In this document: one piece after another, positions 30,691 through 52,144 of the stretch | Layout of the letters: every line of letters begins with the position of its first letter | Numbering within the stretch: position 1 is the first letter of the stretch | Notes under the pieces: generated by a model | The model's database searches: none | Seen by the model: only the letters and a program-made list of their open reading frames with translations | What the model was told of the DNA's origin: nothing | Translations under genes and position numbers: made by a program | NCBI GenBank assembly: GCA_029100545.1 | Contig: JAQXPH010000016.1 | Location: 10,008-74,007, forward strand | Source of the DNA: a bacterium | GTDB taxonomy: Bacteria; Bacillota_I; Bacilli_A; RF39; UBA660 | Direction: 5' to 3' | DNA: 64,000 bases

Positions 30691-31109
30691 GCAACTCTTT
30701 GCTTCATACCACCAGAAAGTTCTTTAGGATATTTATTCATAAAGTCTTTCAATCCATAGGTAGTTAATAAATTCTTAACATATTCAATATTTTCCTTAGT
30801 TTTAATTTTTTTTATTTCTAGTCCCAAAAGTGCATTGTCTAAAATTGTTAGGTAGGGTAGTAATGCATCTTCTTGTAACATGTATCCTATTATAGTATTT
30901 TTTTTATAAAATGTAATATTACCATTACTTGGTTTATCTAAACCTGCTATAATATTTAATAAAGTTGATTTTCCACAACCGGATGAACCAACAATACATA
31001 TAAAATCATTTTTATTTACATCAAAAGATACTTTATCAATTGCTTTAATTTCTCCCTCTTTTGTATAAAATACTTTAGATAAATTTTCTACGCTTAATAT
31101 TTTATGCAT
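30691..31109 (-). pseudogene. 5' portion of the ssuB/tauB-like ABC ATPase gene (Walker A, Q-loop and signature motif), cut after LSGGMKQRVA by the element
   Basis: MHKILSVENLSKVF...GSSGCGKSTLLNIIAG...LSGGMKQRVA then a stop created at the element boundary (TGA at 30687-30689). Confidence 0.8.
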
Positions 31110-31276
31110 TTAATAGTCACCTATGATATTTTATGCATATCATTTTTCCTAGATATTTAATTAGTTTAGATAATTAAATTTTTTTTTATATTTGAAAAAA
31201 TAAAATATAAAATAGTAGGTTAATATAATTACATAATTATTTATTTTTTCATATATTACATGGAAAGGAGTTTCAA

Positions 31277-32533: not shown

Positions 32534-32668
32534 ATCTAAAAGTAGACAAATAGTAGACAAATTATAATGTCTACTTTTTTCTTTTAATTAAGAATAATTT
32601 TTATTTTTAATAATATAAAAATATATATAATTATCTTTTTGTGGTAAAATAGTAACAAAGAGGGAAAA

Positions 32669-33403: not shown

Positions 33404-33439
33404 TAAAAACTTCATTAATTATAAATGAAGTTTTTTGCT

Positions 33440-35586: not shown

Positions 35587-35730
35587 AATTATTTCCTCCT
35601 TATTATTTCTATGTATTATATTCTTTTTTTTAAGTTAAGTGATTTTTATTGCAAAATAATTAAAAGGTAGTTTACATATGTCCTTTTTTTGTGCTATAAT
35701 TTTTTATATGATAAAGGGTGTGAAAACAAA

Positions 35731-36951: not shown

Positions 36952-36960
36952 GAGGTATCC

Positions 36961-37863
36961 ATGAATAATAATATTGCAGCTAAAATTAAGGCTTTATCAC
37001 TTAACGAAGATTCATATAAAACAGTTTGTAAGTTTTATGCTAGTCTTACTGATGATGTAATAACTTTAGAAGATTTTGTTGCTAAAGTAAATTATTTAAA
37101 TAGTAAAGGAATAAATATAACAAAATCCTCTCAAATTAAAGTATTAGCTAATTCATTAGATTTTATTAAAAATCAAGTTGAACAAATGGAAAAAATAGGT
37201 TTTTTAGATGCATTTGTTGAAAATCCCCTTAGAATTAATTCTAAAGAATGTATCAAAAGAATAGAGTATTTACTATCAATTAACAAAAGTATTAAGGATG
37301 AAAATGGAAAATATAACAAAATCATTTTTAATAAAAAAGAATTTGATCGTAAATATGGAGTTACATATTTAGAAAACAAATCTGATATTCAAAAACTAGA
37401 AGTAAAAACTGATAATATAATAGAAGCTAAAGAAGAAGTAAAACCAATTGAATCTGTAACTTCTCCAGAAGAAAATAAAATAGAAAAAAAAGAAAATGAA
37501 ATAATAAATGATGAACAAGTTATTGAAACTAATCCATATATACTTGCACTTTCAAAAGATCAAACAATACGTCTAACTGATGAAATGCTTGCTAAATATG
37601 AAGACATTAGTTTACATTTAAAACATGTATTAGAATCACTTAATTATGGAAGTGAAATTGATGGAACTAAATCTGATAATTTAATTAAACTTTTAACAAG
37701 TGGTATTACAGATGAAAGGGAAATAATATATTATTCGTTAACGTATAATAAAAAATTAACAGATGAAGAAAAAGTCAGAATATATAAAGCAATTGATAAT
37801 GAACTTCAATTAGTAAATGACGAAATTAATATAATAAATTTTAATTTAGGGAGTGTAAAATGA
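36961..37863 (+). CDS. Hypothetical helical-repeat protein
   Basis: GGAGG Shine-Dalgarno then ATG; shares the EKIGF-type repeat motif with its neighbours (MEKIGFLDAFVEN). Confidence 0.45.
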   Translation: MNNNIAAKIKALSLNEDSYKTVCKFYASLTDDVITLEDFVAKVNYLNSKGINITKSSQIKVLANSLDFIKNQVEQMEKIGFLDAFVENPLRINSKECIKRIEYLLSINKSIKDENGKYNKIIFNKKEFDRKYGVTYLENKSDIQKLEVKTDNIIEAKEEVKPIESVTSPEENKIEKKENEIINDEQVIETNPYILALSKDQTIRLTDEMLAKYEDISLHLKHVLESLNYGSEIDGTKSDNLIKLLTSGITDEREIIYYSLTYNKKLTDEEKVRIYKAIDNELQLVNDEINIINFNLGSVK

Positions 37864-38147
37864 AGTTTTTAGAAAAAATAGGATTTAGTAAAGATGATAT
37901 ATCTTTTTTAGAAGAAAATACTCCAGAAAAATTATTAGATTTAATTAAAGAACAAAAAAAATTAGTAACAGAAAATATTACTTATTTAAAAGATTTAGGT
38001 GTTACTAATTATCAAGATATATTTTTAAGATTTTATGATATGTTTTTAATGGATAATAGTAATTTTATAGCAATTTTCTCTAAATATGAAAAAGAAGATT
38101 TAATTGCTAAATTAAAGAAAAATATAAACATAGTAGAATATTTATAA
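37860..38147 (+). CDS. Small hypothetical helical-repeat protein (ATGA overlap with the upstream gene)
   Basis: MKFLEKIGFSKDDISFLEEN...LKDLGVTNYQDIFLRFYDMFLMD. Confidence 0.4.
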   Translation: MKFLEKIGFSKDDISFLEENTPEKLLDLIKEQKKLVTENITYLKDLGVTNYQDIFLRFYDMFLMDNSNFIAIFSKYEKEDLIAKLKKNINIVEYL

Positions 38148-38160
38148 ACTACTATGTTTT

Positions 38161-38949
38161 TTATTTACTTTTTAATCGATATAAATTAAAAGACGGTTTG
38201 TTTAAAAATCTTAAGTTAGTTTTTTCAGTACCTATTCCATAACTTACATACATTTGACTATTATTATCATTATAATAATTATCAATATAAATTTTTGCAC
38301 CATCTTTTTTTATTATAGCTCCCCAAAAAGGTATTCTAATTTGACCACCTAAAGAATGACCTGCAAAGATTACATCAATATTATAATTTTTTAATGTTTG
38401 AAAATCATCTGGTTTATGTAAAAGTCCAATTACAAAACTTGGATTAATATCTTCTTCATTTTCTAATAAAGAAGTATCAAAATTATTTGCATCTAGTATT
38501 TTAATTGGATCTATATCTTTGTTATATACATAAACGTAATTACCATTTAATACTGTAAAACCATTATTTAATAGAGTTTCTTTTATGTTTTCATTATCAT
38601 TGTCTCCTAAAATAGCATATTTATAATCTGCATTAATTTTATTAAAAAGTTCACCTAGTTTATTTAAATCATTATTATTTGCATTTTTAATAACATCTCC
38701 AGTAAAAACTACCATATTAACATTTTCATCATTTATTTTGTTTATAATATTTAAAGTATTTTCATAATCAAGTTCATTTTGATATAAAATATCAGAAAAA
38801 TGAGCTATTTTAAAACCATTAAAACCATTTGTAATTTTACTTGATTTAATTTCGTATTCATTAATTTTATAACCTTTAACATTAATATATTTTGCATATA
38901 AAAATATTAAAGTAAAAAACAAAATAATTATACATAAAAATTTTTTCAT
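38161..38949 (-). CDS. Calcineurin-like metallophosphoesterase (YkuE-like), with signal/anchor
   Basis: NMVVFTGDVI (motif), GHSLGGQIRIPFWG (GH and GxxR motifs). Confidence 0.7.
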   Translation of the reverse strand: MKKFLCIIILFFTLIFLYAKYINVKGYKINEYEIKSSKITNGFNGFKIAHFSDILYQNELDYENTLNIINKINDENVNMVVFTGDVIKNANNNDLNKLGELFNKINADYKYAILGDNDNENIKETLLNNGFTVLNGNYVYVYNKDIDPIKILDANNFDTSLLENEEDINPSFVIGLLHKPDDFQTLKNYNIDVIFAGHSLGGQIRIPFWGAIIKKDGAKIYIDNYYNDNNSQMYVSYGIGTEKTNLRFLNKPSFNLYRLKSK

Positions 38950-39626
38950 ATACTACCTGCCAACATAAGTAATAAAATACTTCCAAAATTATTAAAAAAA
39001 TGATATGTAATTGAAGTAAAAATATTATCAGTATCATAGAAAATATAACTTAAGGCAAATCCCATAATTGAGTAGGGAATAATATGTAATAGTTCAATTG
39101 AAGATTTAGCTACTAGTAAATGCATTGAACCAAAAAATAATCCTGTTATTATCGAAAAAATAATTTTGTTTTTAAATAAGTTTTTAAAATTTAATCTAAA
39201 TAAAATCTCTTCATAAAATGGAGCTAAAAAACACATTTCAATAACTGAATATAGTAATTTATATTTTACAAGTTCTCTATTTAATGATTCGTTTGTAGCA
39301 ATATCACCAGTAAATTGAGTTATAATTATATTAGATATATACATTAAAAATAAACAAATAATAAATATTTTAAAACTTTTAGAAATATATTTTTTATAAT
39401 TTTTTTTAAAGTCTTTTAAGTCATTTATTAAATTTTTTTTGTAAATTAAAAATAAGTATAGACACATTATTAAATAAATAATTATTGAAAATAAACTATT
39501 ATGTTTATTTAAATAGGATTTAAATAAAATAACTAAAATTTGCATAATTAAAAAAAATGATATAAATATTACTATATCTTTAATAATATTAAAAAAGATG
39601 TTTTTATTTTTTAATTTTATATTCAT
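38946..39626 (-). CDS. CPBP-family intramembrane metalloprotease (CAAX protease-like)
   Basis: Multiple TM segments; motifs EEILFR, FGSMHL, HFFNN in the canonical order. ATGA overlap with the downstream phosphoesterase gene. Confidence 0.7.
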   Translation of the reverse strand: MNIKLKNKNIFFNIIKDIVIFISFFLIMQILVILFKSYLNKHNSLFSIIIYLIMCLYLFLIYKKNLINDLKDFKKNYKKYISKSFKIFIICLFLMYISNIIITQFTGDIATNESLNRELVKYKLLYSVIEMCFLAPFYEEILFRLNFKNLFKNKIIFSIITGLFFGSMHLLVAKSSIELLHIIPYSIMGFALSYIFYDTDNIFTSITYHFFNNFGSILLLMLAGSI

Positions 39627-39718
39627 AATAAAAATATATCATAATTAATCATTTGTTTCAATTTTTATTGAAAAAAAATTGTCAATATGTTACTATTTTA
39701 ATAGTAGGGATGGTGCTA

Positions 39719-40444
39719 ATGAAAAAAAGTAAATATTGTTTATTTTTATTTATAATACTATTTATAGGTAAAAATGTTTTTGCTGAGTGTACATATGAAG
39801 AACAAGCAAAGCTTAATAGTGAAGCAGCAACTATTAAGGCAATTTATGAGGAACAAAAGGGTAATTTAGATTTATCAAATTATATATGTGCAGATGGTCA
39901 GGAAGATTGTAATACTGAGTATTCATATTTTAAAGTGGCTGTATTAAATTTAAGTGAAAACTTTTATGTAAAAATAAGTGAAGGTAAAAAAACTATAACA
40001 ACATTAACTTACAGTAATGTAGTAGATGGAATTGCAAGTTTTGATGTTGAAGATATAACTGAAACACACACATATAAATTTGATGTTTATACAAGTGATA
40101 AAACGAATTGCAAAAGTAAATTAAATCGTTCTTTTTATCTAACAACTCCAAGATTAAACGAGTATGCAAATTATTCAATTTGTGATGAACTTCCAGATTA
40201 TTATTTGTGCCAACAATATGTAACTTTTACTGACATGGGTTTTTCTGATTTTGTTGATAAAATTGAAAGTTATAAAAAAGAAGAGGAAGAAAAAGAAAAA
40301 GAGAGGAATAAATCTTTTTTTGAAAAAATAGGTGATTTTGTAAAAGAACATAAGACTATTTTTATTACAGGTGGGGTAGTAATTATAGTTGGTGTTGCTG
40401 GTGTGATTATAATAAAACAAAAAAGAAGAAAGGATATAATATAA
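39719..40444 (+). CDS. Secreted Cys-containing protein with a C-terminal TM anchor and KRRK tail
   Basis: AGGGATGG Shine-Dalgarno, MKKSKYCLFLFIILFIGKNVFA signal peptide; acidic EEEEKEKE linker; C-terminal IFITGGVVIIVGVAGVIIIKQKRRKD. Confidence 0.5.
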   Translation: MKKSKYCLFLFIILFIGKNVFAECTYEEQAKLNSEAATIKAIYEEQKGNLDLSNYICADGQEDCNTEYSYFKVAVLNLSENFYVKISEGKKTITTLTYSNVVDGIASFDVEDITETHTYKFDVYTSDKTNCKSKLNRSFYLTTPRLNEYANYSICDELPDYYLCQQYVTFTDMGFSDFVDKIESYKKEEEEKEKERNKSFFEKIGDFVKEHKTIFITGGVVIIVGVAGVIIIKQKRRKDII

Positions 40445-40445
40445 T

Positions 40446-43400
40446 ATGAAAAGAATATTTAAATATTTTATTGCATTTATTTTTATTATAATTCTAATAC
40501 CTAAAGCAAATGCATTTGAAGTTGGTGAAGAGTTTACGGTAATTAATAATGGTTCAGGTCAGTCATCTGGAGTTGGCTTTCCATATGGCTTTTCAACTTC
40601 AAGTGCAACTCAAGTATCTACTGGAAAAACATTTGAAGCATTTTGCCTTGAACGTAATAAAAGTGCTCCAACTTCTAGTACTACGTATTTAGTTGATAGA
40701 ACAATGCCATCCGAAACAAGTGAATCTGTTGCAAAATATGATTATGCTGCACTTTATATTATTAATAGTGAAGCAACATATGAAGAAAAACACCTTGCTA
40801 TAAGATTTCTTACTGATGTAATAGTAGGCTATAGTAATACTCAAACTGTAGCACCTGATTATTATTACCAAGAAGAAGCAGCTGTTAGTGAATTTATGAA
40901 AGATAGTTCGTTCTCAGCAGCTTATAATGATTTTACTACAAAAAGTTTTTCTTCATCACATACTTTTAATGGAAATATAAGCCAAATGTCAGGAGTAAAA
41001 AGTGTTTTACGTGATGGAATGATTTTTGCTAATGAAATGATGAAAGATAATCAAAATCAAACTAAAGTTGAAAAAGGTGAATCTGGAGAAATTAGCAAAG
41101 AATCAAGTGGTGGAATGGTTACATATAAAAAAATTGTTTCAATAAAACTTGATATATATAATATATTAAACGATAGTGATGATGAATATTTCAAAATAAT
41201 AAGTGAACCAGAAGTTGAGGCTTATAGTGACCAAGTTGAAGTTAAAATGCTTGGCGTATCTGAAACATTTATTGATAGTGAAAATGGTTGGAATTCTATA
41301 AGTGTTGGTGAAGATATATCAAAGAAACTTGATGATAGAAAAGGAACATTATATTTGGGATTTTTAGTTACTTTAACAACAGAAGAACAAAGTGAAAGTG
41401 CTGAAGAAGAGGAAGAAGAAGATTGCACTGTTAAAATAACGATAAATTATGAATATACTAGTCCTTATTCTGGAGCTGTTTTAAAACATTCAAATGCAAG
41501 TTATAGGCAAAGTGCTCAAAAATTTATAGTTGCTTCAACTGATCCAATAAAAGGTAAGTTTACATTAGAAACTAATTTATGTAGTGAAGCAACATGTGAT
41601 CCTACGATTTCCGTTCCAACATTATGTGAACCTGGTGAAGATGAGAAAGTTAATGAAGATGGATTAATAGAGTATGAATTTAGAGAAGCATATAATCCAG
41701 ATACAGGAAAGTATAATATTAAGAAATGTTTATTAAAGAAAAATAGCAATGATATAGCGGAAAATTCTTATAAATATGTAGATTCTGAAAATGCTCAAAT
41801 GGTAGTTGATAATCCATATTGTGAAGTTAAATGTAAAGAAGATTATAAATTTGGAGTGCCATATAAGAAAACAACTGAAGCAGGAAGGTATTTCCAAATT
41901 AGTACATCTATTAAAGGAGAACAAGATTGTTATACTACTAAACTTGATTACAATAAGTACACAGAAGATGTAGTAAAAAAACAAGCAGAAATTATAGATA
42001 CATATAATGAATGGCTATTAAATTATGAAAATCATATGAAAACACCAGAACAAGGTTTACCAGCAGAGTGTAAAAAATGTGGTACAAACGAAGATGGAGG
42101 TTGTGATGAAAATCTTGAAACAATAGACTATTATGATAAAATTGAACATAGTAATAACTTCATATACAAGACAATAATATCATCAGAAGATGGACCATGG
42201 AGTATTGAAGCAGGGGTTGGAGATAGTAGAGGCCCTGAAAAATATGGTAAATGGGATGGCGATGGAAAGACTTGCTCAAGTAATGGTAGTACATGTACTT
42301 CAAGTGGAACATGCGATTGGGAAATAACTCCAGAAGACGACTATGAAGAAAAAGATAAAGAATATAAACAAAAAATACAATCTACAAAACAAAAATTAAA
42401 ACAATTGCTTGAAGATCTTCGTATGATAGTTGATGAATATAACTCTTGTGTTGCTGATCATGATTATGCTTCAAAACAAAAAGATAAATCAAAAACTTAT
42501 GGAGATTCAGCATTTTGGGATATGGTATATATTTATGACCCAGAAGTTTATTATAGTTATGATGAACCAGAACCTAATAATACAAGTATAAGTAAGTGGA
42601 TAGAAGAAGTAAAAAGTATTAGTTCATGTGATAATGGAACTTGTGATATTATGATTAGTCCTGATGAATTAATAAAAGCTGAAAAATGTTCTGATAAATG
42701 TTCCGTTGATTGTGATGAACTTGGCCATAGTGGAAATGTTGAGGATATAGATGAAAATATGCATCCAGTAACTTGGTATTGTGATGGCGAAGTTGATAAT
42801 GAATATAAGGAATGTAAAGGAAATGAAATAAATAACATTTTAAGTGTTGGTGATTATAATGAAGAATATCACTGGATGGTTCTTGATGAAGATTTAGATA
42901 CTGGTATTGAAGCAGAAGTTCATATTGGAAATAATTTAAAAAATTCAAAACATTTGATAACAAAAATGGATTATTTACATAAGATTGCACAGTCTGAAGG
43001 TAATTATACTACAGCAAGGGTTTATTTTTCAGGACACGATAATGGAGATATAAAAATTGAAAATACTGATAAAATAGAAAACTATGATGTAGTAGATGGG
43101 TTACCAGTAAGTATTAATACACCACAAGGAGTATATAATTATACATTAACTTTGAAAAATATGGGTACATATTATTCTACAACACCTAATTTAGGAAGAA
43201 TATTTGATGATGAAGGAAATACAATGGCTAATTTATATATTGAAAAAGGAATTAGACCTTCAGCAACAAAAGAAAATGGTGAAGAAATAAAAGGAAATGA
43301 ATATGTATGTACATATGAAGTTTCAGCCAATGAATGTACTGATAGTTCTGGAACAAAACATTATAAAACAGAATGTAATTTAGAAAATGAAACTTGGGAT

Positions 43401-44291
43401 CAATGTAAAGAAAGATTATGTCCAAATTCTGCAGGACCATATTGTGTACATGATTCTAATGGTTACTATGTATGTGATAATAATTATTATAACGAAAGTT
43501 GTCAAAAACAAGGATCTAGGGAAGAAGCACTAGCAGCAGTAGGATGTACACTAGGTGAACCTTGTGAAAAAAATTATAATTGCTGTCCAGATTGTACAGT
43601 AGAATGTATTGGTGAATGTGTAGTTAAATCCGAATGTACTTCAACTGGTTGTACAGGAAATCCAAATTCAAAACCTCAGTACAATTTTAAACCAATAAGT
43701 CCAGGTAATATGTTTCCAACAGATCGTGAAATAGGTTTTAACTGGGATATAAGTGGCAAATATAAAAATTCATTAGTTGCTAGAAAAGCAAAAGATACTA
43801 GAGAAGAAATAACAGCAAGAGCAAATGATGTAACATCAGAAAGTGGAAGTAGTGGTATACCAAAAGTTGAAGACTATTCACTTAAAGTTACAATGGACAC
43901 TAATATGATTAATAAAATTAGGGAATATAATCAAGAACAAGGAACTTATAATAATGATACGATGTCATGTTATGATTACAAGTTAGATTATGATGAAGAT
44001 CATTGTAAGAAAAATGGTTATGCATATGTTAACAATGAGTGTATTATGTCAAATATATTTTGCTATAGTGAATTTGTTGATGACCTTCTTGATGGCAATT
44101 TTGGTGGAGAAGTTGATATGACAAATAAAGAAGGAAGAACGAAAACAAAAGAAGCATTTAATAAACAATATACTGGTATAACTGGAACACTTGATAATGT
44201 GGTAACTAATGATTATTGGACAATATATAGTTTTACGTCACTAGATACAAATGGTGATAGTATACCAGATATTGGACCATCTTGGAAATAA
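40446..44291 (+). CDS. Giant (1281 aa) secreted Cys-rich protein of unknown function
   Basis: Signal peptide MKRIFKYFIAFIFIIILIPKANA. Many Cys, densest near the C-terminus (e.g. CPNSAGPYCVHDSNGYYVCDNNYY...CCPDCTVECIGECVVKSECTSTGC). Acidic tract EEQSESAEEEEEED. No LPXTG and no repeats. Confidence 0.6.
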   Translation: MKRIFKYFIAFIFIIILIPKANAFEVGEEFTVINNGSGQSSGVGFPYGFSTSSATQVSTGKTFEAFCLERNKSAPTSSTTYLVDRTMPSETSESVAKYDYAALYIINSEATYEEKHLAIRFLTDVIVGYSNTQTVAPDYYYQEEAAVSEFMKDSSFSAAYNDFTTKSFSSSHTFNGNISQMSGVKSVLRDGMIFANEMMKDNQNQTKVEKGESGEISKESSGGMVTYKKIVSIKLDIYNILNDSDDEYFKIISEPEVEAYSDQVEVKMLGVSETFIDSENGWNSISVGEDISKKLDDRKGTLYLGFLVTLTTEEQSESAEEEEEEDCTVKITINYEYTSPYSGAVLKHSNASYRQSAQKFIVASTDPIKGKFTLETNLCSEATCDPTISVPTLCEPGEDEKVNEDGLIEYEFREAYNPDTGKYNIKKCLLKKNSNDIAENSYKYVDSENAQMVVDNPYCEVKCKEDYKFGVPYKKTTEAGRYFQISTSIKGEQDCYTTKLDYNKYTEDVVKKQAEIIDTYNEWLLNYENHMKTPEQGLPAECKKCGTNEDGGCDENLETIDYYDKIEHSNNFIYKTIISSEDGPWSIEAGVGDSRGPEKYGKWDGDGKTCSSNGSTCTSSGTCDWEITPEDDYEEKDKEYKQKIQSTKQKLKQLLEDLRMIVDEYNSCVADHDYASKQKDKSKTYGDSAFWDMVYIYDPEVYYSYDEPEPNNTSISKWIEEVKSISSCDNGTCDIMISPDELIKAEKCSDKCSVDCDELGHSGNVEDIDENMHPVTWYCDGEVDNEYKECKGNEINNILSVGDYNEEYHWMVLDEDLDTGIEAEVHIGNNLKNSKHLITKMDYLHKIAQSEGNYTTARVYFSGHDNGDIKIENTDKIENYDVVDGLPVSINTPQGVYNYTLTLKNMGTYYSTTPNLGRIFDDEGNTMANLYIEKGIRPSATKENGEEIKGNEYVCTYEVSANECTDSSGTKHYKTECNLENETWDQCKERLCPNSAGPYCVHDSNGYYVCDNNYYNESCQKQGSREEALAAVGCTLGEPCEKNYNCCPDCTVECIGECVVKSECTSTGCTGNPNSKPQYNFKPISPGNMFPTDREIGFNWDISGKYKNSLVARKAKDTREEITARANDVTSESGSSGIPKVEDYSLKVTMDTNMINKIREYNQEQGTYNNDTMSCYDYKLDYDEDHCKKNGYAYVNNECIMSNIFCYSEFVDDLLDGNFGGEVDMTNKEGRTKTKEAFNKQYTGITGTLDNVVTNDYWTIYSFTSLDTNGDSIPDIGPSWK

Positions 44292-44305
44292 GGAGGGTAT
44301 AATAT

Positions 44306-45439
44306 ATGAAAGAATCCTATTGGGGTTATTGGCTAATGGTTTTAGGAGTATTCATTATTGTAGTACTCCTTCTCATCCAAAGCTTTACTTCAACCAATAC
44401 TCAAGACTATTATTTAATTAAAGAAATTACTGAGTCATCATTGGTAGATGCAATAGATTATGGTTATTATCGTGAGTATGGTGAACTTAAAATTAATAAA
44501 GAAAAATTTTATGAAGTATTTTTAAGAAGATTTGCTGAGGAAGCGTCACTTACAACTACTTATACAATAGAATTTACTGAAATATATGAAGCACCACCTA
44601 AAGTTGGTGTTAAAGTATCAAGTAAATCATCAACTTTTACAGTTGGAGGAGATACAACAACATTTGATATAGTAAATAAACTTGATGCAATTCTTGAGTC
44701 AAAAAATAGTGCAAATATTGGCGAAGGTGAAGGATCAATCGTAGATGATTTTACAGGTGATGATGAAATTATAAATCCATCAACTGGTGAAGAAGAAACT
44801 CCTGAAGGAAGATTTGATGTGCTGATTGGTAATCCAGCAAGTATTGTACAACAATCAGAGTATGTTACTGTAAATGGCGTTAGTGTTAATATGTTTTGTG
44901 CCTGTGGTCCAATTGCGATTACTGAAGCGGCAATTATATTAGGAAAGACAAATACTTTAAAATCGGGTGTAAATTATAGTGGAAGTAATAATAAAGAACT
45001 TGCTGCAGCAACATACATTAAAATGCATGATTATGGTTTAAATGGTGATCCAACAACTAGCAATTATGATTCAAGTAGTCCATCATTTTGTGGAAGAACA
45101 GGTAATTATTCCTCAGGAAATGGATTTTATAGTACTATTGGTATAAGTGTAGCAGGAAGTGGTGGAAGTTTTGGTAGTAAATCTGGTGGATATGCAGATG
45201 AAATATTTAAACAATTAGCAAGTGGAAATGTTGTTATTGCCTCATTACCTCCGAACACATCAAATGTACCATCAGATTCAGGTTTAAAAAATACAAATAG
45301 TGGACATTATTATACAATTTATGGTTATGATGCTAATAATGGTTGCTTTAAGGTATATAATCCTATGGCTGGTAATTCATGTGTATCGGATGCAAATGTA
45401 GATAAATATTTTACTGAATACATTTCATATTCAGGCTAA
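44306..45439 (+). CDS. Membrane-anchored Peptidase_C39_2-like (YvpB-like) cysteine peptidase domain protein
   Basis: N-terminal TM (WLMVLGVFIIVVLLLI); C-terminal MFCACGPIAITEAAIIL (catalytic Cys context) and GHYYTIYGYDANNGCFKVYNPM (His/Asp region), matching the C39_2 family pattern. Confidence 0.5.
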   Translation: MKESYWGYWLMVLGVFIIVVLLLIQSFTSTNTQDYYLIKEITESSLVDAIDYGYYREYGELKINKEKFYEVFLRRFAEEASLTTTYTIEFTEIYEAPPKVGVKVSSKSSTFTVGGDTTTFDIVNKLDAILESKNSANIGEGEGSIVDDFTGDDEIINPSTGEEETPEGRFDVLIGNPASIVQQSEYVTVNGVSVNMFCACGPIAITEAAIILGKTNTLKSGVNYSGSNNKELAAATYIKMHDYGLNGDPTTSNYDSSSPSFCGRTGNYSSGNGFYSTIGISVAGSGGSFGSKSGGYADEIFKQLASGNVVIASLPPNTSNVPSDSGLKNTNSGHYYTIYGYDANNGCFKVYNPMAGNSCVSDANVDKYFTEYISYSG

Positions 45440-45551
45440 AAAGAACGTAAAAAAAATTATGTTCTTTTTTTTAATAGATAATCTTGAAATTGTTAATAAA
45501 AGTTGCTATAATTTTAATTGATAATAAAAGATTAACATATGGAGGATAAAA

Positions 45552-46322
45552 ATGGGAAATATTATTAATTTTTTTAAAAAAACAATTGCTAACAAAAATA
45601 CTGTTACAATACTTTTAGTTTTAGCAGGTATTGTTGTATTATGGGTATTTTACTCAATGAGAGTAAAAGAGGCTACTTCTCCAATAAAAGTGCCTTATGC
45701 AAAGGAAGAAATTCAGGCAACTGAAGAAATAACTGAAGATAAAATAGGCTATGTCGAAGTTAATAGTAAACTTTTAAAAACAGTGGATATTATTCAAAGT
45801 CAAAGTGCACTTATTGGTTATTATGTAACGACTGGTACATCTATTCCTAAAGGTGGATTATTTTATAAATCTCAGATAGTTACTAAAGCAGAATTACCAA
45901 ATTCAGTTTTTGATAATATTCCAGATAAACACACAATTTATAGTATGTCTGTTAATAATCATACTACTTTTGGAAATTCAATTTATCCTGGGGATAAAAT
46001 AGACCTTTATTTAAAAGCTACTGATGATAGTGGTAAAATAATGTTTGGAAAATTTATTGAAAGTATTACAGTTTTAGGAGTACGTGATTCAAGTGGTAAA
46101 GATGTTTTTGGAACTACTACTACTAGAACTCCTGCAGAACTTTTATTTGCTGTACCAAATGATATGTACGAATTATTAATGAAAGCAGGTTATATTTCTG
46201 GCATTACACTAGTTCCTGTACCACGTAACAAAGCATATACTGAACTTAATGCAGATACTGTTACTATAGAATATTTGAAAAACTTTATATTAGCAAAAAC
46301 TGCAACATTACCAACAGAATAA
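45552..46322 (+). CDS. Flp pilus assembly protein CpaB/RcpC-like
   Basis: N-terminal TM, a SAF-like beta-rich segment, and a C-terminal TPAELLFAVPNDMYELLMKAGYISGITLVPVPRN resembling the CpaB C-terminal module. Confidence 0.5.
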   Translation: MGNIINFFKKTIANKNTVTILLVLAGIVVLWVFYSMRVKEATSPIKVPYAKEEIQATEEITEDKIGYVEVNSKLLKTVDIIQSQSALIGYYVTTGTSIPKGGLFYKSQIVTKAELPNSVFDNIPDKHTIYSMSVNNHTTFGNSIYPGDKIDLYLKATDDSGKIMFGKFIESITVLGVRDSSGKDVFGTTTTRTPAELLFAVPNDMYELLMKAGYISGITLVPVPRNKAYTELNADTVTIEYLKNFILAKTATLPTE

Positions 46323-46345
46323 AAGAATAAAGGGAGTGATTATTT

Positions 46346-47485
46346 GTGAAAGAATCTATATTTTCACAATTAGATTTTGGACCTATAACTGAGTTTTTAA
46401 ATGATGATAATATTACCGATATTTCATATTCAAATGGTGGTAATGTATGGCTTAAAACTTTAGATAAAGGTATTTATATGGTCAATAGACCTGAAATAAA
46501 CAATGCATTAATGGAAAAATTAGCATTTCAATGTTCAAATGTTATGGGTACAACTTTTAATATGGCTCATCCTTTTCTAGATGCTGAAAGTACTGAACTT
46601 CGTCTTAACTTTGTTCATGAATCAATAGCCACAAATGGAATTGCCTGTGTTATAAGAAAAACACCTGCTAAGATTAGGTTAAATAAAGAAAAATTATTAA
46701 ATGAAAAATATGTTACTGAAAATATTCATAGTTTTTTAATATCATGTGTTAAGGCACATTGTAATATATTAATTTCTGGTGAAACTGGTTCAGGTAAAAC
46801 AGAACTTGCTAAATATTTAGCCTCTAATACTGAAGAAAATGAAAAAATTATTACGATTGAGGATACATTGGAACTTCATTTAGATAGAATTTTTCCACAT
46901 CGAGATATAGTTGCTATGAAAACAAATAATATTGCTTCGTATTCTGATGTTCTAGTAACATGTATGAGACAAAATCCTAAATGGATTTTACTTTCCGAAG
47001 TTCGTTCAGCAGAAGCAGTTACTGCTGTTAGAAACTCAATTTCGTCAGGTCATAATATTATTTCTACTATCCATTCAGATAGTGCTAGTAATATACCAAT
47101 GCGTATGTATTCTTTGCTTGAAAGTAATCAAGATATTGAGCAATTTTTAAAATCTATTCATAGATATGTTCAAATTGGAATACACGTAAAAGGATATATG
47201 AGTGCTGAACTTCAAAGATTTCAACGTGAAATTGTCGAAGTTGTAGAATTTTATGTAGATGATAATAATGAATCAAAAACAAATACAATATTTTATAAAA
47301 GTTTAGATGGTACTATTGCTTATAATAAACCAACAAAATATTTAGAAAATTATTTTGGTGCTCAAGGAAAAGTCCTTGATTATAGTTTATTTGATGAACA
47401 AAATAATTCAGATATAATTGAAAAAAAAGAAAATAGTAATGGACAAATTGAATTACCTATTATAGGAGCAATTGATTCATTATAG
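46346..47485 (+). CDS. TadA/CpaF/VirB11-family secretion ATPase
   Basis: Walker A ILISGETGSGKTE; TIEDTLEL (Asp box); WILLSEVRSAEA (Walker B region); GHNIISTIHSDSA (His box). Confidence 0.8.
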   Translation: MKESIFSQLDFGPITEFLNDDNITDISYSNGGNVWLKTLDKGIYMVNRPEINNALMEKLAFQCSNVMGTTFNMAHPFLDAESTELRLNFVHESIATNGIACVIRKTPAKIRLNKEKLLNEKYVTENIHSFLISCVKAHCNILISGETGSGKTELAKYLASNTEENEKIITIEDTLELHLDRIFPHRDIVAMKTNNIASYSDVLVTCMRQNPKWILLSEVRSAEAVTAVRNSISSGHNIISTIHSDSASNIPMRMYSLLESNQDIEQFLKSIHRYVQIGIHVKGYMSAELQRFQREIVEVVEFYVDDNNESKTNTIFYKSLDGTIAYNKPTKYLENYFGAQGKVLDYSLFDEQNNSDIIEKKENSNGQIELPIIGAIDSL

Positions 47486-47497
47486 AAAGGAATAAAT

Positions 47498-48394
47498 ATG
47501 GTAGAACTTATAATATTATTGATTTTAGGTATAATAATAATTTTATATCGAAGAAATCCAGGCGAAAATGTATATAAGTTTTTTGTAACTACAGTATCCG
47601 ATGCATATGATAAATATGCTCCTTATTCATTTAAAACAGTTAGAGCAAAAGCAAAAGAACTTGGTCAAGAATATTCTACTAGGCAATATATTTCTCAAAT
47701 TGTTTTATTTGCCGGTTTTGCTGGCGTTGTAGCATATTTATATTTTTATAATATCTTGATTTCTGTTTTATATGCTGTTGTTGCTATTTCATTTATTCCT
47801 TATCTTGCATATTTAAGATGTCAAAGAATTTATTCAGAATTTATTTTTGAACAAATTGAAACATATACAACAAATGTTATAATGGAATTTAATACAACCC
47901 AAAGTTTTGTTAAATCTCTCGAAGGTGTTAGAGATTCTGGAATTATTGAAGAACCTGTATTAGGTGATTTAAAAAAAATGATTGATATGTCATATCAAAA
48001 TGGTACAATAGATGAATCAATTGATTATTTTAACAAAAAGTATCCATTTTATATGGTTAAAAACATGCATCAATTGTTTTTCCAAATTACTAAAGAAGGT
48101 GCTCGTGATGCAGGACAATCTCTTGAGAATATGGCGCTTGATATAGATGCACTAGTTGAGGGTGTTTATCGAGATCAAATGGATCGTAAACAATTTCATG
48201 GTAAATTTATAAAATTTGGTCTAGCATTATTTTTTCTTATTTTAGCAGTCCAATATATGTATGGAACTGAAAGATATATTGAACTTTTAGATATATGGTA
48301 CGTACGAATTATACTTCATGCAATAATTATAATAAATGCGTTATTCCTTTTAAAGGGTGAAAAATATTATAACGAAGATGTGGGGGTAGAGTAA
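47498..48394 (+). CDS. TadB-like (T2SS-F domain) inner membrane protein
   Basis: N-terminal TM, a central cytoplasmic roughly 110-aa domain, C-terminal TM pair. Position right after the ATPase. Confidence 0.5.
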   Translation: MVELIILLILGIIIILYRRNPGENVYKFFVTTVSDAYDKYAPYSFKTVRAKAKELGQEYSTRQYISQIVLFAGFAGVVAYLYFYNILISVLYAVVAISFIPYLAYLRCQRIYSEFIFEQIETYTTNVIMEFNTTQSFVKSLEGVRDSGIIEEPVLGDLKKMIDMSYQNGTIDESIDYFNKKYPFYMVKNMHQLFFQITKEGARDAGQSLENMALDIDALVEGVYRDQMDRKQFHGKFIKFGLALFFLILAVQYMYGTERYIELLDIWYVRIILHAIIIINALFLLKGEKYYNEDVGVE

Positions 48395-48395
48395 T

Positions 48396-49187
48396 ATGTA
48401 TTATGAAATATTTATACTTGGTGTTATTATTTTTGGAATAATGTTTGCTACTGGTCAGATAAGCTTTAGTAAATTAATTAGTGATAATGAAGTATTATTT
48501 AGAAAACTTAAAGAAAGTGATTGGGACTTTTATGTAAAAGCCAAATATGGTAATGCTGTAAATCCAGATATTTTATTTAATAAAAGAATAAGAAATGGTT
48601 TAATTGCAATGCTAGTTGCATTTTTCTGGGGACTTACGAGTGGACTTTCAGCAATAAAAATTGTTATTGTTGTGGCAGCGGGATATTTTACTTTTAAAAT
48701 TACATATAGTGATTTAAAAAATTATTATAAAAAACATATTTTTGAAATAGATCAATTATTGCCACATTATTTAAAAAGTATTGAAATATTAATTCAACAC
48801 TATACAGTTCCTGTTGCAATAGGTAAATCAATAAATGATGCTCCAGAAATATTTAAACCTGGTCTTGAAGATTTAATAAATGCTATTAATTCTGGTGATG
48901 ATACAATAAATCCATATATGGAATTTGCTAAAACGTATCCTGTACGTGATAGTATGAGAATGATGAGACTATTATTTCGTTTAAGTTTAGGACGACAAGA
49001 AAGAAAACAAGAACAGTTATTAACATTTTCAAAATCAATTTCATCATTGCAACAAAAAGCAAGAGAAACTCGTTATAAAAATCGTTTAGATAAAATGGAA
49101 AGTATGACAATGAAAATGCTTATTACAACTGGTGTTGGTGTAATGATTATTTTAATTCTTGCAGTTTTACAAATGATAAATTTATAA
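48396..49187 (+). CDS. TadC-like (T2SS-F domain) inner membrane protein
   Basis: LPHYLKSIEILIQHYTVPVAIGKSINDAPEIF...MRMMRLLFRL resembles the T2SSF consensus (LP..L..l...aG.sl..Al). TM helices at both ends. Confidence 0.55.
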   Translation: MYYEIFILGVIIFGIMFATGQISFSKLISDNEVLFRKLKESDWDFYVKAKYGNAVNPDILFNKRIRNGLIAMLVAFFWGLTSGLSAIKIVIVVAAGYFTFKITYSDLKNYYKKHIFEIDQLLPHYLKSIEILIQHYTVPVAIGKSINDAPEIFKPGLEDLINAINSGDDTINPYMEFAKTYPVRDSMRMMRLLFRLSLGRQERKQEQLLTFSKSISSLQQKARETRYKNRLDKMESMTMKMLITTGVGVMIILILAVLQMINL

Positions 49188-49261
49188 AAATGTCAAATAT
49201 ATTGATAAAAAATAAAAATATTGTTATAATAAAAATATAAGATAAAGGAGGAGTAAATTAT

Positions 49262-49507
49262 ATGAAGGAAGCTACAGGTGAATTAAGTAACACTGTTATA
49301 ACTGTTGTTGCAATAGCTGCAATATTATCATTATTTACAGTATTCTTATATCCATCATTAAAAGCAGCTATTAGAGCTAGAACTTATTGTCAATCATCAG
49401 TACAGTGTGGTGACTGTGATGGTAATAAAATGGAATGCCATTATTATAATGATGATATGTCTGTAAGTGAAGATACAATTATGTGTGATTGTGAAACAAA
49501 TGAATAA
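49262..49507 (+). CDS. Pilin-like small protein with a Cys-rich C-terminal domain (non-canonical Flp/TadE-like N-terminus)
   Basis: MKEATG/ELSNTVITVVAIAAILSLF (short charged leader ending in Gly, then a hydrophobic helix), followed by a 45-aa Cys-rich tail (7 Cys). AGGAGG Shine-Dalgarno. Confidence 0.45.
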   Translation: MKEATGELSNTVITVVAIAAILSLFTVFLYPSLKAAIRARTYCQSSVQCGDCDGNKMECHYYNDDMSVSEDTIMCDCETNE

Positions 49508-49528
49508 AGTTAATTAAAAGGAGTAGAA

Positions 49529-49750
49529 ATGAAAAATGCTACGGGAAATCTAGCAAATTTAGTTGTTGTATGTGTTTGTGTGGCTATTCTCGTAGCTTTT
49601 TTTTACTTTACATTATGGCCAATGATTAAAAATAATTATATTTCGCAAACAAGTTGTGAAAAAGCTAAATGCCTTCCAAAACCTGATCAAAATGGTATGG
49701 TAACATGTTATTTGGATGGGCAAGAGTTTTTATGTAAGTTTAAGGGGTAA
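49529..49750 (+). CDS. Pilin-like small protein paralog with a Cys-rich C-terminus
   Basis: MKNATG/NLANLVVVCVCVAILVAFFYF then a Cys-containing tail. The N-terminus is paralogous to the upstream gene (MK-ATG-L-N-V). Confidence 0.45.
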   Translation: MKNATGNLANLVVVCVCVAILVAFFYFTLWPMIKNNYISQTSCEKAKCLPKPDQNGMVTCYLDGQEFLCKFKG

Positions 49751-49753
49751 TTT

Positions 49754-50260
49754 ATGAGAGAAGGAATAGGCGGAATACAATTATTTTTAATTGTTGTAAT
49801 ATTAGTATTAATTTTTGCGGGTATTATGTCACTTACAATTAATCATTCAAATGCTTTTGCAATAAAAGATCAACTTGTCTCAATAATTGAGGATGCTGGT
49901 GGTCTAGATATTACAGCTGAATGTAGATTAGGTGATTGTAATGATGATATAAAAGATCAACAAACACTTCAAAATATTGTTGATGCTCTTGATAGTTATT
50001 CTTACCGTCAAACTGGTAATTGTGATTCAATAACTGTAAGTGATACTGCAACAATGGTTGGATATCAAAGAACTGGAGAAATTACAATGACGGGGAAAAA
50101 AAGTTCTTTTTGTATTGCAAAAATTGATGCTAATAAAGATGATGGAACATTAAGAGGGTATTACTATAAAGTTTATGTTTTTTATCAACTAGATATACCT
50201 GTATTACATTCAATTTTTAATTTTCGTTCCATTGGAGAAACAAAACTATTATATAGATAA
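49754..50260 (+). CDS. TadE-like pseudopilin candidate
   Basis: MREGIGGIQLFLIVVILVLIFAGI N-terminal helix, then a roughly 140-aa globular domain with Cys residues. Confidence 0.35.
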   Translation: MREGIGGIQLFLIVVILVLIFAGIMSLTINHSNAFAIKDQLVSIIEDAGGLDITAECRLGDCNDDIKDQQTLQNIVDALDSYSYRQTGNCDSITVSDTATMVGYQRTGEITMTGKKSSFCIAKIDANKDDGTLRGYYYKVYVFYQLDIPVLHSIFNFRSIGETKLLYR

Positions 50261-50269
50261 GGAGTGTTT

Positions 50270-51268
50270 ATGAACGTAATTATTTCAAATAAAAATCAAG
50301 CATTACTTGCAAATTTAACTATTGATGTTATTAAAACATTAAATGGTGTTTTTACTGTAGATGATTTAGCATCACAATTTAAAAATTTTTATTTTAATAA
50401 AATGATTATTGATATAACAGCACTTGATAATTATGAAGATATTAATACAATTCAAAACTTGTCAGTAGCTTTAGATATGAGCAAAGTAATTTTACTTTTA
50501 GATGATTCACCTAGAGTTAATTCACCGGTGTATTTATCTAGTTTGGTATCAATGGGCATATATAATTTTACCAAAAATGTTGATGCAATTTTATTTTTAA
50601 TAGAAAATCCTAATACATATAAAGATGTTGCAAGTTATCAAAATTTAAATTTATCAGCTGATGATATGAAATTAAATGATAATAGTGTTGATAATACAGT
50701 TGGATATATTGGTCAAAGAATAATTGGAATTAAAAATGTTACTGACCATGCTGGAGCAACAACACTTACTTATTTATTAAAAAAACATTTAGAAAAGCAA
50801 TATAAAGTAAAGGCTGTAGAGATTGATAATAGTGATATGGTTTATTTTAATGATAATAATATTGATACTAATGTTAATAGTTTTGAAGTTAGTAAATATT
50901 TAAATAATTTAAATAACAATGAAACTGAGGTTATTTTAATTGATATGAATAAAGCTGATATTGAAAAATATTGTACAGATGTTTTATATTTAATTGAACC
51001 TGGTTTAATACAACTAAATAAACTGATTAAAACTGATAAACAAATATTTAATAAATTAAAAGGTAAAAAAATTATTTTAAATCGAAGTGTATTAAATGAT
51101 ACGGATGTTAGTGATTTTGAAAAAGAGTCTGGTAGTAAAGTCTTTTATAATATGCCAAATATTGATGATAAATTAAATGATAATAAATATATAATTAAAT
51201 TATTAAAAGATTTGGGATTTACTAGAATAAATGAAAAAGAATCATTTGGATTTAGTATTTTTAGGTAA
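50270..51268 (+). CDS. TadZ/CpaE-like protein: receiver-like N-domain plus MinD/ParA-like domain with a degenerate Walker A
   Basis: AAGGAG then ATG at 50270. N-terminal roughly 120 aa with receiver-like beta-alpha pattern (VIISN...IIDITALD...VILLLDD). Then IIGIKNVTDHAGATTLTYLLKKHL in the place of KGGVGKTT, and VILIDMNKAD in the Walker-B-like position. Confidence 0.45.
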   Translation: MNVIISNKNQALLANLTIDVIKTLNGVFTVDDLASQFKNFYFNKMIIDITALDNYEDINTIQNLSVALDMSKVILLLDDSPRVNSPVYLSSLVSMGIYNFTKNVDAILFLIENPNTYKDVASYQNLNLSADDMKLNDNSVDNTVGYIGQRIIGIKNVTDHAGATTLTYLLKKHLEKQYKVKAVEIDNSDMVYFNDNNIDTNVNSFEVSKYLNNLNNNETEVILIDMNKADIEKYCTDVLYLIEPGLIQLNKLIKTDKQIFNKLKGKKIILNRSVLNDTDVSDFEKESGSKVFYNMPNIDDKLNDNKYIIKLLKDLGFTRINEKESFGFSIFR

Positions 51269-51339
51269 AATAGATGTTTAATATATTGACAGTTTTTAAA
51301 TAAAAAGGTAAAATATAAATATGTGAAGGAGTGTTATAT

Positions 51340-51666
51340 ATGTTAATTTTGGATGGTTTTTGTACAGAAACTAGTGATATTTGGATTTTTCTTGGAAAGA
51401 TCATATTTATATTAAAAATACTTATTCCTGTAATTTTACTTGTTTTAGGTATTGTTGGTCTTGCAAAAGCTGTTATTGCTGATGATGACAAAGAAATTAA
51501 GACACAAGTAGGTAAATTAGTAACAAAATTTATTGCTGCAGTATGTATTTTCTTTTTACCATCAATAGTAAAAGCTTGTTTTGGTTTAGTTGATCAATTT
51601 AGTGAAGTTGAAGAAGAATACGTAAATTGCGTAAATTATATTACTGATCCATATAATAGTAATTAA
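51340..51666 (+). CDS. Small two-TM membrane protein, paralog A
   Basis: GAAGGAG then ATG at 51340. Shares DGFCTET...IW...IPVILLVLGIVGLAKAVIADDDKEIK...KFIAAVCIFFLPSI with the downstream paralog. Confidence 0.45.
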   Translation: MLILDGFCTETSDIWIFLGKIIFILKILIPVILLVLGIVGLAKAVIADDDKEIKTQVGKLVTKFIAAVCIFFLPSIVKACFGLVDQFSEVEEEYVNCVNYITDPYNSN

Positions 51667-51692
51667 AGATGATTTATCATCTTTTTTTAGTT
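51665..51692 (+). terminator. Intrinsic terminator
   Basis: aagatgat-ttat-catctt hairpin plus a T7 run. Confidence 0.55.
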
Positions 51693-51769
51693 ATCTAGAT
51701 TGATTTTTCATTTAGATTTGTATTTTTTTATTAAATATGCTATAGTATTCTTACTGGAGGGGTAATTTT

Positions 51770-52144
51770 ATGGGTGAAATTGGAACAAGTGAAGGTTTTT
51801 GTGCAAGTACTATTACAATATGGCAAGCTTTAGGTTATGCCCTATTAATTGTTAAAATAGTTATTCCAATTGTTTTAATTATTATTGGTATTATTGCTTT
51901 AGGTAAGGCAGTTATTTCTGATGATGATAAAGAAGTTAAAAAAGGCATTAGTTCTCTTATTAAAAAATTTATTATTGCAGTATTAATATTTTTCTTACCA
52001 ACGATAATGAGCGCTATATATCCATTAATTACTGGATTTAATCAAGTAAAAAGTGATTATGATGTATGTATGGAGTGTATTACAAAACCTAAAGGAATTA
52101 ACTGTATAAGAAGAGTTGAAGAATTTAATCAAAATAATGAATAA
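51770..52144 (+). CDS. Small two-TM membrane protein, paralog B
   Basis: GGAGGGG Shine-Dalgarno. EGFCAST...IW...IPIVLIIIGIIALGKAVISDDDKEVK...KFIIAVLIFFLPTI. Confidence 0.45.
   Translation: MGEIGTSEGFCASTITIWQALGYALLIVKIVIPIVLIIIGIIALGKAVISDDDKEVKKGISSLIKKFIIAVLIFFLPTIMSAIYPLITGFNQVKSDYDVCMECITKPKGINCIRRVEEFNQNNE

Follow-up and report, generated by a model that had tools for sequence, protein, structure and literature searches.

The 64,000-nucleotide stretch of contig JAQXPH010000016.1 analyzed here (the window) carries, between positions 39719 and 52144, a cluster of 13 genes, g01 to g13, which we interpret as a chromosomal, lineage-wide and strongly diverged Tad-like type IV filament (TFF) machine of RF39-type gut Bacilli. 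In the proposed mechanism, the CpaF-like hexameric ATPase g05 would drive a membrane platform made of g06 and g07, together with the CpaB-like protein g04 and the cytoplasmic accessory protein g11, and would lift the pilin-like subunits g08, g09, g10 and g03 from the membrane into a filament. The DUF5411 protein g03 would be a pilin-like subunit with a lineage-specific enzyme at its outer end (here papain-fold and apparently active; VanY/M15, M23 or none in relatives), which would locally open the peptide cross-links of the wall for the passage of the filament. The giant protein g02, made with g01, would be the payload that varies, most likely an adhesin that DUF5411 and the minor pilins keep attached to the filament, while the pilin leaders would be removed after Gly6, most likely by an A24-type peptidase encoded elsewhere in the genome. 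We consider this mechanism, taken as a whole, moderately likely. The genes of the locus are the following.

g01, 39719..40444, + strand: 241-residue type I membrane protein and partner of the giant protein; its signal peptide is followed by an ectodomain with Cys, a linker rich in acidic residues and Lys, a C-terminal transmembrane (TM) helix and a KRRK tail.
g02, 40446..44291, + strand: 1281-residue secreted giant protein with 44 Cys, proposed to be a displayed adhesin or cargo.
g03, 44306..45439, + strand: DUF5411 pilin-like anchor (residues 1-133), disordered acidic linker (residues ~126-165) and papain-fold Peptidase_C39_2 domain (residues ~170-377).
g04, 45552..46322, + strand: CpaB/RcpC-like bitopic protein.
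g05, 46346..47485, + strand: secretion ATPase of the TadA/CpaF-VirB11 group.
g06, 47498..48394, + strand: polytopic membrane protein and candidate platform protein, whose likeness to TadB/PilC is confined to the fold.
g07, 48396..49187, + strand: second polytopic membrane protein with a g06-like architecture, candidate second platform subunit.
g08, 49262..49507, + strand: pilin-like protein A, beginning with MKEATGEL, which is followed by a hydrophobic helix and a variable domain that holds 4 or 6 Cys.
g09, 49529..49750, + strand: pilin-like protein B, with the C-terminus C-x-[FYW]-K-G.
g10, 49754..50260, + strand: 168-residue pilin-like protein with an M[RK]E[SA]IGGTW N-terminus and a TM helix, candidate minor pilin.
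g11, 50264..51268, + strand: cytoplasmic protein of 332/334 residues, possibly TadZ-like by shape and motifs.
g12, 51331..51666, + strand: small two-TM protein, VirB2/T4SS_pilin-like.
g13, 51770..52144, + strand: paralogue of g12.

The 13 open reading frames (ORFs) are co-oriented and tightly spaced in a window with a G+C content of about 24%, and each is preceded by a Shine-Dalgarno-like sequence. Every ORF named in a preliminary description of this DNA, made from the letters alone, was present on the + strand with the boundaries given there, although that description had left the last two (51331-51666 and 51770-52144) undescribed. The start of g11 is probably the ATG at 50270, which gives a protein of 332 instead of 334 residues, as the orthologues begin with MNVI and independent gene calls also return 332 residues. 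Three of the five top-scoring promoter-like sites (11 of 12) were located at 45484-45512, 49202-49230 and 51286-51314, in the larger gaps before g04, g08 and g12, which suggests putative sub-operons starting at these genes; the total of promoter-like sites in the region was not above that of shuffled controls. Pfam and NCBIfam searches with all 13 proteins returned only DUF5411, C39_2, T2SSE, a weak RcpC/CpaB and a weak T4SS_pilin match.

A one-genome-per-species scan returned 331 stretches encoding a g03 relative, from which 78 distinct loci were kept, and 84 related loci were compared by calling ORFs in 20-kb neighbourhoods and assigning them with phmmer and hmmsearch. The loci came mostly from gut metagenome-assembled genomes (MAGs) labelled as uncultured Bacilli or Tenericutes, besides Mycoplasma sp. 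CAG:472 and Clostridium sp. CAG:609, and a protein search with g03 found relatives only among MAG proteins of unnamed "Bacilli/Firmicutes bacterium" origin. Going by these names, the related MAGs probably belong to RF39, an uncultured order. Genomes of RF39 are reduced and show auxotrophies (PMC12306168). The exact sequence of the g05 ATPase also occurs in pig-gut metagenome contigs with identical gene order.

Synteny in relatives, a point raised in the preliminary description, was borne out across RF39-type MAGs. The g01-to-g13 order recurs down to about 40% identity, indicating that the arrangement is not due to chance, and in many genomes the locus is flanked by a metallophosphoesterase gene on one side and by uvrA/lgt on the other. 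Because of this fixed site, the locus is regarded as chromosomal, ancestral to the clade and not mobile, and an origin from a mobile element was rejected. Both g01 and g02 were found in 72 of the 73 loci with enough upstream sequence, supporting the earlier assignment of these two genes to the system; among the 62 loci with at least 8 kb downstream, g04-g07 were present in 59, the pilins and g10 in 52, g11 in 51 and g12/g13 in 48. The median identity to the window proteins was 78% for the ATPase g05, 72% for g06, 68% for g07, 64% for the DUF5411 domain and 61% for g11. The corresponding values were 42% for the flanking metallophosphoesterase and 38% for an Rce1-like gene, and 31% and 37% for the variable pair g02 and g01. 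Judging from these values, the motor is under unusually strong constraint while the exposed parts diversify.

Some loci depart from the common arrangement. The pilin, g10 and g11 genes do not directly follow g07 in L004, L012 and L014, which form the ~40% identity clade, nor in L006 and L018. They lie about 4 kb further on in L006, beyond inserted RelB, BipA and phosphoesterase genes, and were not found within 10 kb in L004. The system can thus be split. Two CpaB-like genes and two g10-type genes occur in many loci.

The ATPase is the best recognized component of the machinery. The Pfam family T2SSE matched g05 with an E-value of 5.9e-29, and the Walker A (GETGSGKT), Asp box, Walker B and His box can all be read in its sequence, in agreement with its earlier description as a TadA/CpaF-type ATPase. 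Its best solved relatives were CpaF chains (3.4e-18), followed by VirB11 and the archaeal GspE2/FlaI, while the top NCBIfam models were VirB11, TrbB and the TadA family, equally high and all below their equivalog cut-offs. The protein g04, previously labelled CpaB-like, matched Pfam RcpC (5e-6, 26.8 bits against a cut-off of 28.8) and TIGR03177 (6e-8, 32 bits against a cut-off of 71, spanning 206 of 262 profile positions). Although both scores are below cut-off, weak or faint RcpC matches recur among the orthologues, whose gene is often duplicated in related loci.

The two membrane proteins that follow the ATPase share the same layout, in which an N-terminal TM helix and a TM hairpin precede a soluble helical domain of some 125 residues, with further TM helices at the C-terminus, and g07 always adjoins g06 in related loci. 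A low-confidence structural model of one protein of the pair showed a predicted soluble domain resembling PilC/GspF, which is suggestive of a platform role for g06/g07. An exhaustive profile search with g06 retrieved 297 cluster representatives among 1.84 billion, mostly fragments, and 13 remote full-length relatives gave no T2SSF match; a homologue search with g06 showed close relatives only among the matches listed. Family profiles of g06, g07, g10 and g11 had no match among Protein Data Bank (PDB) sequences. Likewise, g11 and its 19-member family matched no Pfam family or PDB sequence, with a single member reaching CbiA at E 0.02. The alignment of g11 shows an N-terminal beta-alpha domain and a degenerate P-loop-like segment, GIKNVTxHAG(A/S)TT; the visual resemblance of this receiver-like domain and degenerate P-loop to TadZ is only a lead.

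The pilin-like proteins are characterized by their N-termini. As noted in the preliminary description, g08 and g09 have short leaders ending in Gly (MKEATG/ELS and MKNATG/NLA), with neither the Flp signature G/XXXXEY nor a Glu at position +5. The octapeptide MKEATGEL (residues 1-8, window 49262-49285) is identical in 53 distinct sequences of the g08 family (L001-L084), in which the remainder is highly variable, including a C-terminal part with 4 or 6 Cys. The two proteins are paralogous (hhalign E 1e-30), and the conserved C-terminus of the g09 family, C-x-[FYW]-K-G, corresponds to window positions 49739-49750. No Pfam domain was found in any of 892 relatives of g08, and neither Flp_Fap nor N_methyl matched the 53 family members, whose commonest weak match was to the archaeal family Pilin_N (7 of 53, best E 0.047, not significant).

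The same type of N-terminus extends to other proteins of the locus. The N-terminus of g10 reads M[RK]E[SA]IGGTW and that of the DUF5411 proteins MKE[SA]xWGYW, each followed by a hydrophobic helix, and over its first 29-33 residues g10 can be aligned both to g09 (E 4e-4) and to DUF5411 (E 1e-3). The proteins g08, g09, g10 and g03 have in common a leader of the form M-[KR]-E-x-x-(x)-G and, after it, a hydrophobic helix. Similarity confined to the N-terminus is usual among pilins of one system. It is through its N-terminus only that g10, encoded in one or two copies per locus, is pilin-like. The pilins and g12/g13 have even numbers of Cys, which fits with an extracellular location of these proteins.

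Analysis of g03 showed that the conserved unit of this protein is DUF5411 and not the peptidase. DUF5411 (PF17424) matched with E 1.3e-54 and 184 bits against a cut-off of 30, over positions 1-133 of 134, whereas Peptidase_C39_2 matched with E 2.4e-7 and 31.9 bits against a cut-off of 24; in 46 of 81 locus proteins the DUF5411 domain stands alone, in fewer than 165 residues. In the protein database, anchors 60-80% identical to that of g03 carry Peptidase_C39_2, Peptidase_M15/VanY with or without SH3, Peptidase_M23, Flg_new repeats, or nothing, and the C39_2 domain is confined to a subclade. Loci L005 and L006, with no extra domain and with VanY respectively, are otherwise the same. The AlphaFold2 model of the DUF5411 part contains a helix of 46 residues (residues 4-49), two short helices, three strands and a final helix, a predicted fold with a pilin-like outline.

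The C-terminal domain of g03 was modelled confidently (predicted local distance difference test, pLDDT, above 90) with a papain-like fold. Matches to this fold included the C39-like structure 3erv, staphopain and the peptidase domains of PCAT1/ComA, the best one being the pseudomurein endoisopeptidase PeiR, a cell-wall enzyme. Residues Q182, C198/C200, H334 and N352 are invariant in 17 g03 orthologues, and the domain is therefore probably active. VanY and M23 enzymes act on peptidoglycan peptides outside the membrane. Since the C39_2 domain is interchanged with them on the DUF5411 anchor, it would also lie outside the membrane and act on a similar type of substrate. Judging from the distribution of these domains, C39_2 is most likely an exchangeable module for cutting the cell wall, carried by a pilin-like anchor, and not a pilin-processing enzyme. 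The presence of a wall in these bacteria is indicated by two sortase genes in the window and by FtsW/RodA in L004. Pfam Peptidase_C39, the double-glycine leader peptidase family, matched g03 only below cut-off (E 0.15), and assignment to C39 proper was rejected, the domain being fused to a DUF5411 anchor instead of an ABC transporter and predicted to lie outside the cell.

The features previously reported for g01 (signal peptide, C-terminal TM helix and KRRK tail) and for g02 (1281 residues, signal peptide, Cys-dense C-terminus and acidic tract) were confirmed. The signal peptide of g02 is of the Sec type, the acidic tract lies near residue 320, and 17 of the 44 Cys fall within residues 955-1069. 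No Pfam domain was detected in 36 diverse members of the g02 family, and g01 belongs to no Pfam or NCBIfam family. The 78 g02 proteins range from 720 to 1972 residues and form 55 groups below 50% identity, with a mean column identity of 13%, and yet a set of Cys and the C-terminal end IGGPSWK (window 44274-44291) are kept. The g01 gene directly precedes g02, with a gap of 1 nt here and with overlaps in relatives, and the two are translationally coupled. The g01-g02 cassette is present twice in L023, L033, L051, L065 and L068, with a separate DUF5411 gene for each copy in L023 and L051. The universal occurrence of g01 and g02, their hypervariability and the occasional duplication of the pair as a cassette make a displayed adhesin the most likely role for g02. 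The pairing of a conserved motor with an exposed Cys-rich protein that varies, duplicates and is linked to a pilin-like gene would suit a filament whose adhesive tip is variable.

The last two genes of the locus gave weak matches to T4SS_pilin (PF18895), with E 0.02 for g12 and E 5.9e-4 for g13; 30 of 41 family members match this model (best 1e-5) and four match T4SS_CagC. Most members have four or five Cys, and in some relatives the two-TM module ends larger secreted Cys-rich proteins of 240-510 residues. Since no other component of a type IV secretion system (T4SS) is present, g12/g13 are treated as an unexplained accessory.

The absence of a TadV/CpaA-type prepilin peptidase from the locus, pointed out in the preliminary description, was confirmed. 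Peptidase_A24 matched none of the locus proteins and none of the smaller polytopic membrane ORFs tested in the 64-kb window; the real ones among these are an ABC permease and a Zn peptidase, and two large 6-TM proteins are ABC exporters. The motif GxGDxK was found in no frame of the window and in no ORF of the 84 loci within 10 kb of the DUF5411 gene. However, TFF loci with no peptidase gene of their own are documented: tadV is modelled as possibly lying apart, and all MSH loci are devoid of one (PMC6668835). The absence is therefore less unusual than had been implied, even if a related Tad operon of the Erysipelotrichales, that of Bulleidia, begins with tadV (PMC12786226).

We consider it probable that an A24 enzyme encoded elsewhere cuts after Gly6, while the invariance of the five residues before this Gly keeps a non-A24 solution under consideration. 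The pilin-like N-terminus might stay intact or be cut by an unrelated enzyme, in which case the RF39 genomes would contain no A24 peptidase at all. This reading, which we judge unlikely, would account for the finding that MKEATGEL is invariant before as well as after the putative cleavage site across 53 distinct sequences, for the absence of a Flp or N_methyl signature, for the lack of A24 in the locus, in the tested membrane ORFs and, by motif, in the 84 neighbourhoods, and would suit reduced genomes (PMC12306168). On the other hand, there are well-documented cases of peptidase genes that lie outside the locus and serve more than one system (PMC6668835), the sequence covered amounts to about 64 kb of the genome plus the 20-kb neighbourhoods, and the conserved Gly that precedes the hydrophobic helix is a classic site for A24 enzymes. 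A neighbouring gene on the - strand (38946-39626) encodes an Rce1-like CPBP intramembrane protease, divergent from the locus and adjoining it in many relatives; it was set aside as the processing enzyme since about 19 loci with an otherwise intact arrangement have no such protease, which is thus not an obligatory partner. The preliminary description had instead proposed that the C39_2 peptidase replaces TadV and trims the leaders after Gly. In its favour, C39-type peptidases cleave behind motifs of the Gly-Gly/Gly-Ala type, and this one is encoded inside the locus with its catalytic residues conserved. Nevertheless, the domain is absent from most orthologous loci, in which the invariant pilin N-termini are kept, and is swapped for the peptidoglycan peptidase domains VanY/M15 and M23. 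Moreover, its best fold match is a wall endoisopeptidase, and the N-in/C-out pilin-like anchor with its acidic linker would place it outside the cell, whereas the leaders would be cytoplasmic. Given this outside position and the unchanged pilin N-termini in loci without C39_2, the proposal is close to refuted and, in our view, very improbable.

Other explanations concern the function of the machine as a whole. The main rival to display is secretion, in which a monoderm pseudopilus resembling type II secretion would push g02, perhaps as g01-bound complexes, through the hole made by the DUF5411 hydrolase and release it into the medium. The Sec signal peptide of g02 with no anchor motif of its own, its constant association with the machine, the short and numerous pilin-like proteins, as in pseudopili, and the wall hydrolase attached to a pilin-like subunit all agree with secretion. 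We still regard it as unlikely, since g02 is co-translated with the membrane-anchored g01, which suggests retention, the g01-g02(-g03) cassette duplicates jointly, as would fit a tip complex, and hypervariability fits an exposed, selected surface. A DNA-uptake (competence) filament, serving as a nucleotide source or for transformation in auxotrophic bacteria, would be compatible with the very strong conservation of the machinery, with the reduced genomes and auxotrophies of RF39 (PMC12306168) and with the need for Tad pili in this process reported for Liberibacter (PMC8513845). It appears improbable, as no ComEA/ComEC/DprA-type gene occurs in the locus, a hypervariable giant Cys-rich protein is not expected and the g01-g02 cassette would be left unexplained. 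Wall hydrolases are typical parts of T4SSs. A remnant or derivative of such a conjugation-type system might also explain the VirB11 and TrbB models at the top of the NCBIfam results for the ATPase and the VirB2-type resemblance of g12/g13, to which, hydrolases apart, the likeness to VirB/VirD4-type systems is restricted. We find this origin scarcely credible, because no VirB4, VirD4, VirB6, VirB8 or relaxase, nor any other T4SS part, was found in the locus or in the 84 relatives, the chromosomal position is fixed, the best solved relative of the ATPase is CpaF, and CpaB-like and PilC/GspF-like proteins are present together with class III-type N-termini. A ComG competence pseudopilus was rejected as well, given that the ComGA model reached 82 bits against a cut-off of 300, two short platform-like proteins take the place of ComGB and the pilins have no N_methyl match. 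Neither a competence-type nor a spoIIIA operon (SpoIIIAA ATPase with the SpoIIIAB-AH set) was found, nor was a prepilin peptidase within the locus, three outcomes that the preliminary description had named as incompatible with its pilus interpretation.

Several results weigh against a Tad-like filament machine, the explanation that we prefer. Of the families expected for a divergent monoderm Tad-like system, T2SSE, DUF5411, Peptidase_C39_2 and, weakly, CpaB/RcpC were recovered by hidden Markov model (HMM) searches, while T2SSF, Flp_Fap, TadE and A24 were unmatched; the Tad-like assignment made in the preliminary description is upheld by the CpaF-like ATPase, the weak CpaB match and the pilin-like leaders, and its names TadB, TadC, TadE and TadZ are supported by no HMM, those of TadE and TadZ being based on shape and motifs. 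Neither the Pfam and NCBIfam models nor the family profiles linked g06/g07 to T2SSF, and hhalign detected no similarity between g06 and g07, unlike TadB and TadC. No HMM recognized g08/g09 as Flp or g11 as TadZ, and the 46 members of the g10 family gave no TadE match, with a weak DUF4320 match in 3 and a weak match to "Tad" (PF13400) in 1. Both G/XXXXEY and Glu+5 are missing from the pilin N-termini, and one would hardly expect the residues preceding the Gly to be invariant in a leader that is discarded. Both fold searches with g03 were dominated by the peptidase domain and gave no confirmation of a pilin fold for DUF5411. The VirB2-like g12/g13 have no place in the classical Tad model, and no A24 peptidase appeared anywhere in the sequence examined (the 64-kb window and the 84 neighbourhoods of 20 kb). 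Finally, the filament, the wall cleavage and the adhesion are predicted from the genes.

Among known systems, the closest kind is the monoderm Tad pilus, with several of its defining features failing or undetectable in these sequences. The locus shares with Tad/Flp type IVc pili (Caulobacter Cpa, Aggregatibacter Tad and the monoderm loci of Bifidobacterium breve and Bulleidia extructa) a CpaF/TadA-like ATPase followed by two separate polytopic membrane proteins of about 260-300 residues and then by several small pilin-like genes, a weakly matching CpaB/RcpC-like protein and an accessory protein of the cytoplasm; a secretin is absent, as expected in a monoderm. It differs in the missing Flp signature, in the Cys-rich C-terminal domains of the pilins, in the unmatched T2SSF, TadE and TadZ HMMs, in its extra components (the DUF5411-hydrolase, the g01-g02 cassette and the VirB2-like g12/g13) and in the lack of the tadV gene with which the Bulleidia operon starts (PMC12786226).

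The general class had already been noticed, with no mechanism attached: a gene-embedding study by Miller et al. 2022 predicted an uncharacterized DUF5411 operon of Roseburia, Ruminococcus and Eubacterium to be "secretion-related" (PMC9523054). Both operons contain a CpaF-type ATPase, a PilC/GspF-like membrane protein and DUF5411, along with a large protein of the cell-surface or invasion type and several small proteins that have no annotation. The earlier operon belongs to Clostridia and encodes a 434-residue PilC and an internalin-like protein (PMC9523054), whereas that of RF39 belongs to Bacilli and encodes two shorter platform-like proteins and a Cys-rich giant with no recognizable domain. 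The RF39 form also differs in its DUF5411 hydrolase fusions and its VirB2-like genes, the other parts being likened by description. For the Kil Tad pilus of Myxococcus, it has been proposed that minor pilins with variable domains functionalize the filament in interchangeable "Tip" complexes; that system includes a prepilin peptidase of its own, KilA, and cooperates with a complex similar to the type III secretion system (PMC12075869). The likeness, again by description, lies in the variable and sometimes duplicated g01-g02(-g03) cassette of RF39.

Archaeal type IV pili with class III signal peptides are comparable in their very short, charged, Gly-ending leader directly before a hydrophobic helix, with no requirement for Glu+5, in the weak Pilin_N matches and in the presence of GspE2 and FlaI among the solved relatives of the ATPase. 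However, those matches are not significant, CpaF outscores the archaeal ATPases and the host is a bacterium. Envelope-spanning machines use specialized wall hydrolases of the VirB1, FlgJ and EtgA types. In contrast to these and to PeiR, the RF39 enzyme is fused to a pilin-like anchor and could travel with the filament; we know of no described wall hydrolase with such a fusion. The following aspects are, to our knowledge, new: the RF39 form itself, the reading of DUF5411 as a putative pilin-like anchor on which wall peptidases are exchanged, a pilin N-terminus that is invariant but non-canonical, a g01-g02 cassette that is hypervariable, and the VirB2-like genes. Our search of the literature on RF39 pili or competence returned nothing specific.

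The locus is among the best-conserved non-housekeeping regions of RF39, a widespread gut order of obscure lifestyle. Since its machinery exceeds the flanking genes in conservation and is accompanied by a hypervariable giant surface protein, it is the prime candidate for the attachment of these bacteria to the host, mucus or partner cells. From the standpoint of pilus biology, it would represent a Tad-like lineage missed almost entirely by current HMMs, with a non-canonical invariant pilin N-terminus, and the combination of a pilin-like anchor with interchangeable wall peptidases offers a testable idea for the crossing of thick walls. A bolder version, to which we assign a lower probability than to either unprocessed pilins or secretion, is a type IV filament with no A24 peptidase at all, in which MKEATGEL is retained or cut by an unrelated enzyme and the DUF5411 subunit carries its own wall-cutting enzyme. 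If true, this would be a TFF machine minus one of the four components considered universal and would provide the first pilin-tethered peptidoglycan hydrolase, an answer to how filaments cross the Gram-positive wall.

Finally, other features were observed upstream of the locus. Three K/E-rich ORFs of 420, 300 and 95 residues, belonging to no Pfam family, occupy positions 35689-38147; their order is kept in L001, L005, L006 and L085, and two divergent genes lie between them and the locus. Further upstream, the window encodes a large serine recombinase (28841-30436, - strand), a protein with collagen-triple-helix repeats (31277-32533), in a stretch where the G+C content climbs to 0.33, and the two sortases (32669-33403, + strand, and 33440-34261, - strand). 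The region 28841-34261 is possibly an integrated element, or else an island of sortase-dependent surface proteins.

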